A stretch of DNA of 64,000 nucleotides from a bacterium (GTDB lineage Bacteria; Electryoneota; AABM5-125-24; Hatepunaeales; Hatepunaeaceae), in NCBI GenBank assembly GCA_025774605.1, contig JALGVR010000001.1, positions 2,634 to 66,633 on the forward strand. Reading direction: 5' to 3'. The stretch's first letter is position 1, and each line of letters starts with the position of its first letter. A model generated the notes under the pieces. The model saw only the letters and a program-made list of their open reading frames with translations. It had not been told where the DNA came from and ran no database searches. A program made the translations under genes and the position numbers. Of the stretch, positions 225 to 40,274 are shown in pieces.

Positions 225-920
225 GTGCATACCTGGATGAGCACATCCCTTGTCGTGGCCGTAATGCTGCTGATTCTCACAATGCTGTTGGAAGCCTACC
301 TGGCGACGTTCATCACCCGGCAGATTATCCAGCCGTTCGGACGATTTGAGAAATATACCCAGCGGACAGCCGCCGGTGATTTCTCGCTGATAACACCCAC
401 CCGTAAATACCGTGATGAGTTCACCAACCTGGCCATTGCCATCAATCGCATGCTAAAGGAATTGAAGGAGCACGGAGAGCAGCTCATTCAATCACGCAGG
501 ATGGCGGCGATCGGAACCCTCACCGCCGGTATCGCCCACGAGCTCAACAATCCGCTGAACAACATCAGCATTACGACCGAGGCCCTTCTCGAGGAGTTCG
601 ATGAATGGGAGCGGGACGAGAAACTGAAGATGCTGAAGGATATCCACACCCGGGTTGAGCGGGCAAGCGGTACTGTCGCCAACCTGCTGGATTTCACCCA
701 CCGGGACGAAATATCATTTGAGCCGCTCACGATCAACAGCGTTCTGAGATCAACCGTCCGGCTGGTGGAGAATGAATTGGCGATTAATAACATCAAGCTG
801 GATATGGACCTGAAGGAAAATCTTCGCGGGAATGACGGGATGAGTTATAGACTAAAGAGAGAAAGCCCGGACTTGAGGAAAGCCGGGCGCCCGCTGATCA
901 GACAATATTGTCATAGATAA
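225..920 (+). CDS. Sensor histidine-kinase fragment: one TM, HAMP, then HisKA (H-box AGIAHELNNPL). It ends where the HATPase_c domain should begin. GTG start.
   Basis: H-box and dimerisation/phosphoacceptor motif are readable. No N/G1/G2 ATPase boxes before the stop at 920, which abuts convergent speB. A hairpin-like sequence sits at about 880-900. Confidence 0.5.
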   Translation: MHTWMSTSLVVAVMLLILTMLLEAYLATFITRQIIQPFGRFEKYTQRTAAGDFSLITPTRKYRDEFTNLAIAINRMLKELKEHGEQLIQSRRMAAIGTLTAGIAHELNNPLNNISITTEALLEEFDEWERDEKLKMLKDIHTRVERASGTVANLLDFTHRDEISFEPLTINSVLRSTVRLVENELAINNIKLDMDLKENLRGNDGMSYRLKRESPDLRKAGRPLIRQYCHR

Positions 921-5768: not shown

Positions 5769-5984
5769 TTCGGAAACTAATCCGCCGGATCACCTTAGCC
5801 TTGCATTTTGATAGATGAATCCGCTATCCTTGCATGTCAGTATGTCAGATGATAACATTTTCGCTGTTCCCGATGGTTTAGCATGAGTTTAAGTCTCAAA
5901 TCGATTTTAAATTGCAGGGTGGACCGGGATGGGGGGATCCGGGACGGCACGGGCTGTTCAGATTTAATAGCGGGGGTGTTTTGT

Positions 5985-6118
5985 TGTCATCCTGAACGCG
6001 TTATAATGTCACCCTGAACGCAGTGAAGGGTCTCAAGCCTGATAAACGAGATTCTTCACTTCGTTCAGAATGACGCATTGCCCTGTTCGGAATGACGCAT
6101 TGCCCTGTTCGGAACGAC
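5985..6118. repeat. Palindromic dispersed repeat (family A). An inverted pair gtcaccctgaacgcagtgaagggtctc / gagattcttcacttcgttcagaatgac is followed by a 22-bp tandem (aatgacgcattgccctgttcgg x2.4).
   Basis: Seen directly. The same 'gtcattctgaacgaagtgaagaatctc' unit recurs at 40093-40226, and degenerate copies recur at 12455-12890. Confidence 0.7.
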
Positions 6119-6157
6119 ATGGAGAAATGCAATTATAAGTTGCCCCGTAACAGGTAG

Positions 6158-12425: not shown

Positions 12426-12454
12426 TCAAGGCGCTTCATTTTAATATCATATCT

Positions 12455-12890
12455 CACATTGTCATTCCTGTGAAGGCAGTCTGTCCGAGAATGAGAAAAA
12501 CGCACCAAACCTCATCATTCCATCGAAAGATGGAATCCAGTAACACACGTAATATCAGCAACATCACTGGATTCCAACCCCCGCGTCCGCGAGGGCATGC
12601 TTCCGTTGGAATGATGAATCCCGAGACAATTTGCTATTCTCAGACAGGCCGGCAGGCAGGAATCCACTGTTTGCAGGTATATACTTCTTTCCGGATAACT
12701 GCTTCCGCAGGTGCGACACGTTACATGAGGACGCCGACTGAAGTCGGCGCTCCCCGTTCAACTGCTTCCGCATGTATGACGTTTGACCGACCTCTTCAAC
12801 AGGAACGTCCGCTCCCCGGGCTCGACCATAGGGAGCCCCGCTTAACAACTGATAATGACAACGTGAATAGTCAGAATGACAGCCTGGATG
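12455..12890. repeat. Non-coding, repeat-rich spacer of about 450 bp with several short inverted repeats. It includes degenerate family-A units (gtcattcctgtgaaggcag..., gtcagaatgac) and one family-B half-site (ggacgccgactgaagtcggcgctcccc at 12729-12755).
   Basis: Seen directly. No credible ORF. AT-rich promoter-like sequence follows (12900-13200). Confidence 0.5.
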
Positions 12891-13205
12891 AATCTGCGTT
12901 TCAATAATACTTACCGAAATGTTAATCGCGTAATAAAATGTTTTATTAATCAAACAATATGATTTTTAAGAATTTTCTAACAGTATAAAGAATTTAATTG
13001 AATTAATCTTGACATCCTTGAAAGTGTATTATATATTGCTTTGTGCTTTAAGGAACTTGTAGTGCATATTTTTCTTATGCGCCGATTGTCCGTCGGAAAC
13101 TCCGTCCTTGTTGATTGTTTTCAATATCGGAATAAAGCGGCAATCTGCGCGTTTTTATACTTGATACTATTGAAATTAGCGAAACATAAATCGGGATAGG
13201 GTAGA

Positions 13206-39843: not shown

Positions 39844-40092
39844 GATCCGTCCGATGCCCTGTGTGTCCGGAGGTGGTTTTTCAGCGTTTTATTTATGGGG
39901 CGGCACTCGGGGTGATTATATCGAACGGGGCGCTTGACATCGCATTTCGCACTTACCAAGGGATTGCAGTTAACGGTGAACTTTGACGATCCCCCGCATT
40001 CTCCCTTACGTCAATGGGGGGGGGGTGTACAAATGCAGAGAACAATCTGCCCCCATTAATATTTCGGGGGCAACTTATGGTTCCATTTCCAC

Positions 40093-40226
40093 ATGTCATT
40101 CTGAACTAAGTCATAACATTCTGAACGAAATCATAACATTCTGAATTAATCGTGTCATTCTGAACGAAGTGAAGAATCTCATTTCCTTCCATCGGGAAGA
40201 TCCTTCGCTGCGTTCAGGGCGACAAT
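40093..40226. repeat. Family-A repeat cluster: about 19-bp tandem units (cattctgaac-Naa-Ntcataa x3), then an inverted pair gtcattctgaacgaagtgaagaatctc ... ccttcgctgcgttcagggcgac with an internal palindromic loop.
   Basis: Seen directly. Homologous to 5985-6118. Confidence 0.7.
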
Positions 40227-40274
40227 ACAGTCAACCGCCCCCATTATTAACAATATAACTTATAGAAGCGAGTC

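Follow-up and report, generated by a model that had tools for sequence, protein, structure and literature searches.

The short palindromic units at two loci of the window, by which we mean the whole 64-kb stretch of DNA analysed here, are, on the strength of sequence comparison, best filed as a tandem-G.A subtype of the Ssn-related motif (SRM)/Ssn system, one that the published search string misses. The system was first described in 2025, with the Neisseria Transformation Sequence (NTS), CGTCATTCCCGCGMAVGCGGGAATCYRG, and, as the broader class, the SRMs (Chenal et al. 2025, Nat Commun 16:2388, PMC11893778). We consider it very likely that the units are SRMs, i.e. oriented hairpins that would fold only in single-stranded DNA and act as binding and cleavage sites of ~95-aa single-domain GIY-YIG Ssn nucleases. 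The basis for this is fourfold: covariation within the hairpin, the distribution of the unit across phyla, a linkage with GIY-YIG genes that is seen in both directions, and the homology of the linked genes to NTS-flanked genes. The elements would thus move from the category of regulatory RNAs to a recently discovered system operating at the level of DNA.

SRMs are imperfect palindromes of 20-50 nt that form a hairpin, and they flank ssnA, a 94-aa single-domain GIY-YIG gene (cd10448) (PMC11893778). The enzyme SsnA binds the hairpin as ssDNA only, and on one strand only, but not as RNA or dsDNA, and its cut site is located a few nucleotides upstream; cleavage is determined by the three nucleotides 5' of the palindrome (GTC in Neisseria), and binding depends most on the C directly 3' of it (PMC11893778). 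Removal, replacement or extension of the loop is tolerated, and the halves of the hairpin may also be provided in trans (PMC11893778). One effect of the system in N. meningitidis is to lower transformation with DNA that contains the NTS (PMC11893778). NTSs and SRMs are mostly intergenic, about half of the dRS3 copies are NTSs, and the NTS-ssnA-NTS layout is IS-like, for which the authors draw an analogy to REP/RAYT (PMC11893778).

The repeat reported in the earlier note is real. There are exactly two occurrences of the 27-mer GTCATTCTGAACGAAGTGAAGAATCTC, one at 6048-6074(-) and one at 40154-40180(+), where 0 are expected from shuffled sequences, and its 12-nt head GTCAYYCTGAAC has 10 matches with at most one mismatch in the window, compared to 1.2 expected. 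Each copy of the 27-mer represents one half of a tail-to-tail inverted doublet and carries tail-less "head" copies on its 5' side. At locus 1, the plus-strand unit GTCACCCTGAACGCAGTGAAGGGTCTC (6008-6034; covariance model score 45.4 bits, E 5e-9), a CC/GG stem variant with a GCA loop, is separated by a spacer of 13 nt (6035-6047) from the minus-strand unit GTCATTCTGAACGAAGTGAAGAATCTC (6048-6074; 46.4 bits), a TT/AA stem variant with a GAA loop. A partial head, GTCATCCTGAAC (5986-5997, plus strand), is located 22 nt upstream of the former, and two others, GTCATTCCGAAC (6085-6096) and GTCGTTCCGAAC (6107-6118), form a minus-strand tandem array with a period of 22 nt 5' of the latter (repeat family D1, 95% identity). 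At locus 2, three plus-strand partial heads at 40095-40106, 40110-40126 and 40130-40146 (repeat family D1, 4 copies, spacing 20, 20 and 19), with a period of approximately 20 nt, precede the exact copy of the 27-mer (40154-40180(+); 48.5 bits, E 9e-10), which is followed after a 16-nt spacer by the second unit of this doublet, GTCGCCCTGAACGCAGCGAAGGATCTT (40197-40223(-)). This last unit contains two stem mismatches and one wobble and is decaying (26.5 bits, E 2e-4), so that selection does not act on every copy; in the other three units, all internal pairs are intact. With a covariance model derived from the family and all filters switched off, these four are the full units detected in the 64 kb, everything else having an E-value above 1. 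Three of them start with GTCA and the decayed one with GTCG, and AT-C is present at the 3' edge of all four. All four are of the G.A type described below. A 43-aa ORF at 6001-6132(-), MHFSMSFRTGQCVIPNRAMRHSERSEESRLSGLRPFTAFRVTL, which contains the peptide ...HSERSEESR..., is translated repeat.

The unit can be written as 5'-(T)GTC / A-YYCT / G-A / R-C / G-N-A / G-Y / G-A / AGRR-T / C(TC) and folds into a hairpin in which two tandem sheared G.A pairs separate a lower stem of 5 bp from an upper stem of 2 bp, capped by a GNA triloop, with GTC 5' and C 3' of the palindrome in each unit frame. The pattern GTCAYYCTGARCGNAGYGAAGRRTC, in which the stem positions are free (Y/R), was scanned on one representative genome per species, and 149 copies were drawn from the matches listed for it, which represent at least 120 stretches. 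In these 149 copies the GTCA and TC flanks are invariant by virtue of the search pattern, which is not independent evidence; a T at position -1 is present in 119 of them. The pairs 8-26, 9-25 and 14-20 covary among these copies, with UA 129/CG 18, CG 80/UA 65 and GC 114/AU 30 as their states. As many as 99.4% of the variable-pair cells are paired, compared to 17-54% in slid registers, and changes on both sides of a pair are found in 113 cells versus 37.9+/-8.7 in shuffles, none of 500 shuffles reaching 113. Among the 447 variable cells there are 5 wobbles versus 6 mismatches; wobbles are thus no commoner than mismatches, and there is no sign that one transcribed strand alone matters.

The two arms of locus 1 differ in a similar way, the left unit having CC...GG and the right unit TT...AA, so that all pairs within the units are kept, while pairs between the arms become C.A and G.T. 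The earlier note had described a long inverted pair forming an extended stem-loop. The inverted doublet is indeed present, but the stem between its arms is only 78-81% complementary; the structure preserved by evolution is the mini-hairpin within the unit and not the long stem between the arms. Both locus regions fold more stably than shuffled sequences (z -3.6 and -2.0), and a nearest-neighbour fold credits the unit with little stability.

The earlier note regarded the repeats as specific to this genome, which is wrong for the core unit. In the scan of one representative genome per species, its 25-nt frame is found in at least 120 genomic stretches, and the matches listed include Nitrospirota, Chloroflexota, Acidobacteriota, Planctomycetota, Gemmatimonadota, Omnitrophota, Proteobacteria and Firmicutes as well as Bacteroidota, Ignavibacteria, Saccharibacteria, Gracilibacteria, other CPR lineages and Ca. 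Electryonea. What does look genome-specific is a longer module of approximately 190 nt common to both loci, which is treated below. Convergent (tail-to-tail) doublets are the dominant arrangement in the same set of at least 120 stretches: of the doublets with units 10-40 nt apart among the matches listed, 61 are convergent, 15 divergent and 7 direct. At one metagenomic locus (L130, ~485-950) an ssn-like gene is surrounded by units that are densely arrayed on the same strand, at a period of 38 nt; tandem arrays of full units thus exist, too.

All-against-all clustering of the ORFs at the 120 loci listed yielded one small family located directly on the units, and no cluster of Y1 transposases. 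Its four members, of 93-109 aa, consist of a single GIY-YIG domain (PF01541) and are encoded between units, at a distance of 7-24 nt from a unit. Among the 150 ORFs nearest to units at the loci listed, GIY-YIG is the only recurrent Pfam family, with 3 members where no other has more than 2, and the other nearest ORFs are unrelated housekeeping genes; no transposase family and no Y1_Tnp is found among the 25 families listed for these 150 ORFs, each of which has at most 3 members. The linkage holds in the reverse direction as well. When 80 metagenomic relatives were retrieved by protein similarity alone, a GTC-hairpin-C unit was present within 200 nt upstream of 52, downstream of 57 and on both sides of 41 of the 80 genes, and the density of units was 4.8 per kb beside the gene versus 0.21 per kb farther off. 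In the usual layout, the start codon follows one unit at a distance of 35-65 nt, and the stop codon overlaps with a second, inverted one. At these 80 loci the distal hairpin is highly variable and the unit length ranges from 25 to 70 nt, with the frame GTCAYYCTGAG...CGAAGRRTC being kept. As the peptide pattern with which the linked proteins were retrieved itself imposed their KGW signature, this signature was not used as evidence.

A connection between these proteins and the enzymes of the NTS is provided by viral contigs, which we scanned for the canonical NTS, GTCATTCCCGCGMAVGCGGGAATC. Five NTS-flanked GIY-YIG ORFs were found, and all five align with the entire profile of the unit-linked proteins (E 1e-33 to 1e-36); in one pair, a unit-linked and an NTS-linked protein share 42% identity over 86 aa (E 5e-26). 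The unit-linked proteins nevertheless form a separate group, with a mean identity of 47.5% to the NTS-linked ones versus 59-66% within groups. By their homology to NTS-flanked genes and by their architecture, the unit-linked proteins are assigned to Ssn as putative members. An identity as UPF0213/YhbQ-type proteins, which we also considered, turned out to be wrong, the UPF0213 entries in the PDB being only distant matches (E 6e-6).

With respect to the hallmarks of SRMs, the window units have GTC(A) 5' of the palindrome, a hairpin and a 3' C, and units of this subtype flank small GIY-YIG genes in other genomes. The published string HGTCWYN(0-2)YYVSBRHN(0-5)WNVSBRGN(0-2)RNCYNB has 0 matches in the window, while the canonical NTS, used as a control, is matched; among the 80 GIY-YIG loci it matches 1, which is chance level. 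As the tandem G.A breaks the V-S-B positions of the string, the window units fall outside the operational SRM definition of the paper. A full-text literature search with 13-mers of the unit matched only unrelated primers.

Related elements are found elsewhere in the window, among them a third cluster of the same superfamily. The earlier note had placed degenerate copies in the 12.4-12.9 kb spacer, and related material does occur there (12454-12880), but it belongs to a different subtype, ATCATTCC...GGAATC. Inside the outer hairpin of this third cluster, GTC-ATTCCTG...CAGGAAT-CC (12461-12668), there are a middle stem and, innermost, a doublet of ATCATTCC...GGAATC units (12514-12537(+) and 12570-12615(-)). 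These three nested hairpin layers have a minimum free energy of -37.7 kcal/mol versus -24.9+/-3.3 kcal/mol in shuffles (z -3.9), and the arrangement gives the impression of units that were inserted into the loop of another unit or grew within it. Degenerate minus-strand heads follow at 12700-12716 and 12763-12779, and inverted heads (12854-12866 and 12871-12880) bracket the block. Between 12697 and 12780 there is a direct repeat with a period of 63 nt, AACTGCTTCCGCAGGTGCGAC / AACTGCTTCCGCATGTATGAC, which is reminiscent of degenerate heads of the second subtype on the minus strand. An isolated head remnant, GTCATTCCCGCGAAGAT (820-836, minus strand), lies where a histidine-kinase-like ORF ends prematurely. 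This ORF (225-920(+); HisKA motif AHELNNPL) stops where the ATP-binding/catalytic domain would be expected, and its last residues, ...LRGNDG..., are encoded by the inverted SRM head; it may represent a gene truncated at the repeat.

An alternative that we regard as unlikely is that the units are orphan relics, the decaying leftovers of a past SRM/Ssn invasion in a genome without ssn, with no activity beyond incidental hairpin effects. The cluster at 12.5 kb is heavily degenerate, two pairs are lost in the unit at 40197-40223, the 64-kb window contains neither an ssn gene nor a remnant of one, and 19% of SRM-rich genomes are without a detectable Ssn homologue (PMC11893778). However, 64 kb is a small sample for a gene that is usually present in one or few copies, and all but one of the four units form perfect hairpins. 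In addition, two of the units are identical over 27 nt, including all seven positions that vary in the family, which argues for recent copying or ongoing constraint.

Both loci are situated in co-directional intergenic regions, 40-100 nt upstream of the start codons of a radical-SAM gene and of sirC, respectively, and the earlier note had suggested a regulatory role from their place in 5' regions, as well as a small RNA. This location, together with the stable folding of both regions, is what a cis-regulatory RNA, a small RNA or a terminator/attenuator acting on these two genes might show, but we consider such a role very improbable. A scan of the window against Rfam gave 0 matches at the gathering threshold and only noise at E-values up to 10. 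The module runs in opposite directions at the two genes (antisense at the radical-SAM gene, sense at sirC), and no terminator-like site overlaps either locus, there being no T-tract after a G+C-rich stem. In other phyla the unit adjoins unrelated genes, the rarity of wobbles in the family gives no RNA-strand signature, and the characterised partner enzyme acts on ssDNA only (PMC11893778). Moreover, no unit is present at the radical-SAM loci of five relatives (65-79% protein identity; 76 kb in all), and with the elements missing at corresponding sites a conserved gene-specific regulatory role is unlikely. Neither the regulatory nor the small-RNA suggestion is thus supported, and that the repeats lie upstream of these two genes is most likely incidental.

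The nearest named relatives of the radical-SAM protein belong to Ca. Hatepunaea meridiana (Ca. Electryoneota, FCB group) and to Calditrichota, and three of the five relatives examined are syntenic with the window (rSAM-ogt-(DUF362)-TerC-T9SS protein-H+-PPase). The 338 nt of intergenic DNA that precede the PPase gene in these three can be aligned only to positions ~12885-13205 of the window; the remaining ~510 nt, to which the entire 12.46-12.88 kb cluster belongs, are specific to the window. The upstream regions of the radical-SAM orthologues do not align with the window, and no clean empty site is definable. In the aligned part upstream of the H+-pyrophosphatase gene (~12885-13205), blocks (among them CTTGTGC, GTGCATAT and TGCGC) are conserved with the three relatives (L323 7048-7384, L324 5679-6015 and L327 19881-20218; 65-72% protein identity), and they may represent a promoter or 5' leader.

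Pairwise alignment revealed that the two loci are copies of one module of ~190 nt in opposite orientation, at ~5958-6146(-) and ~40067-40251(+). The similarity runs ~30 nt further on each side than the loci delimited in the earlier note (5985-6118 and 40093-40226). The leader of the module is GGGGCAACTTATAATTGCATTTCTCCAT in copy 1 (6119-6146, minus strand) and GGGGCAACTTATGGTTCCATTTCCACAT in copy 2 (40067-40094, plus strand); both include the exact 12-mer GGGGCAACTTAT, which occurs in the window only in the 6119-6146 leader and at 40067-40078. The trailer, CCCCCGCTATTAA... in copy 1 (5958-5985, minus strand), is homologous to ...CCGCCCCCATTATTAA in copy 2 (40224-40251, plus strand). Neither the shared leader (GGGGCAACTTAT..CATTTC..CAT) nor the shared trailer (CCCCC..TATTAA) is part of the unit found across phyla, and the leader, and likewise the trailer, is absent from all 327 of the 327 loci fetched. 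A direct repeat of 13 nt, GCCCCCATTAWTA, flanks locus 2, its left copy being at 40049-40061 and its right copy inside the trailer (40237-40249); an 11-nt direct repeat, CAAATTATTGA, flanks a doublet in Ca. Electryonea clarkiae (L065, 4829-4839 and 4950-4960). These repeats at two independent doublets look like target-site duplications.

A module in two copies and flanking direct repeats would be expected of a classical MITE, derived from an insertion sequence with a DDE transposase and having the units as its terminal inverted repeats. Yet no flanking direct repeat was found at locus 1, no transposase gene is tied to the units in the 120 loci listed, and the units are internally structured and covarying, unlike terminal inverted repeats bound by a protein; this origin seems to us a remote prospect. 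The partial heads are not peculiar to the window. In the genome and metagenome sets, which together comprise 478 full units, a tail-less head is found on the same strand within 30 nt upstream of 36 units and downstream of none (0/478), with a start-to-start distance between head and unit of 18-28 nt. Heads are thus confined to the 5' side across phyla, as illustrated by nine loci besides the window (L007, L025, L044, L048, L050, L052, L151, L153 and L161), and the head arrays of the window are unusually long. Taken together, the heads, the shared module and the direct repeats hint at composite modules that are copied as units.

Least credible of all are REP/REPIN-type elements mobilised by a RAYT, an IS200/IS605-like Y1 transposase, since the inverted doublets of short hairpins, the conserved 5' tetranucleotide and the intergenic mosaics do resemble REPINs and BIMEs, but the 5' motif is GTCA (in three of the four window units, the decayed one having GTCG) and not the GTAG of REP sequences, GIY-YIG and not Y1_Tnp is the family that recurs among the unit-adjacent ORFs listed, and the frame is common to many phyla, whereas REP sequences are species-specific. 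Integron attC sites were rejected by eye, as R''/R' (RYYYAAC/GTTRRRY) do not fit the sequence; hammerhead and K-turn motifs were rejected for want of a CUGAUGA core and of a 3-nt bulge.

If the units are indeed SRMs, the window would hold the gene-less form of an SRM-ssn-SRM cassette, consisting of two tail-to-tail units embedded in a ~190-nt module that is present twice. Owing to the tail-to-tail arrangement, each DNA strand would carry one correctly oriented unit. By analogy with Neisseria, the hairpins could form when the region becomes single-stranded during replication or repair, or in DNA that enters by transformation or conjugation; they would be bound by a cognate Ssn, whose gene would lie elsewhere in the genome, and the enzyme would then nick the DNA a few nucleotides upstream, with an effect on recombination and on the spread of the repeat. 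The presence of an ssn gene in the genome, cleavage at the units and any biological consequence thereof are all three points that we infer. More tentatively still, and with more doubt than conviction, we suggest that the tandem-G.A/GNA units represent a separate Ssn specificity class, present in many phyla and invisible to the published SRM string, and that the strictly 5' head arrays and the oppositely oriented module are footprints of Ssn-dependent nicking, repair or copying. If true, the sequences themselves would be direct evidence for a spread of SRM-ssn cassettes and their gene-less doublets as an ssDNA mobile element driven by GIY-YIG, and not merely as domesticated restriction sites.

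The Ssn system appears to be broader than its published operational definition. The G.A subtype is common in Chloroflexota, Acidobacteriota, Nitrospirota, CPR, Bacteroidota, Firmicutes and lineages of the FCB group, and as it escapes the SRM string, genome-wide SRM counts and calls of "Ssn without SRM" are probably underestimates. For genome annotation, the units account for a class of small, spurious ORFs, their peptides being nothing but translated units, the 43-aa ORF at locus 1 being an example. For enzymology, each subtype represents a candidate new pair of sequence and enzyme for site-specific cutting of ssDNA.

Several known systems share features with the units. Neisserial intergenic mosaic elements (NIMEs) consist, according to the N. 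meningitidis genome papers, of RS blocks bounded by dRS3. Similar to the repeats described here, dRS3 is a short palindromic repeat (ATTCCC-N8-GGGAAT) joined with other short repeats in intergenic mosaics, but its core sequence differs, and in the window there is a ~190-nt module with head arrays in place of dRS3-bounded RS blocks. The REP/BIME/REPIN-RAYT and IS200/IS605 systems likewise combine inverted doublets with a small nuclease that reads hairpins in ssDNA and whose gene is located between copies of its own repeat; here, however, the enzyme is of the GIY-YIG type and not an HUH/Y1 transposase, and no Y1 gene is linked among the families listed. The earlier description of the repeats as REP/MITE-like is a fair functional analogy, and the authors of the SRM/Ssn study likewise compare their system with REP/RAYT and IS elements, but the units themselves are best read as SRMs.

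At the level of structure, the unit recalls the d(GCGAAGC)-type DNA mini-hairpins and the 5'-Py-GA-Pu-3' tandem sheared G.A motifs reportedly described by Hirao and colleagues and by Chou, Reid and colleagues. A Py-GA-Pu context stabilises sheared G.A pairs in DNA, and the tandem GA of the unit is found in this context, too; in other genomes the commonest upper part of the unit is GCGNAGC, with a closing C-G pair and a G-N-A loop. Those mini-hairpins, though, are model sequences of physical chemistry and not a repeat family.

The closest counterpart is the SRM/NTS itself. The stem of the unit, CTGAR-C-GNA-G-YGAAG, contains the tandem G.A and a GNA triloop, whereas the NTS has a continuous G+C stem, CCCGCG-MAV-GCGGG; the units are accompanied by 5' arrays of partial heads, which are not mentioned for SRMs (PMC11893778), and no ssn gene is seen in the 64-kb window. 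Common to both are an oriented hairpin repeat with GTCAT at its 5' edge and ATC at its 3' edge, a variable distal loop, a mostly intergenic and often clustered location, a wide phylogenetic spread and, in other genomes in the case of the units, a ~95-aa single-domain GIY-YIG gene between inward-pointing copies.
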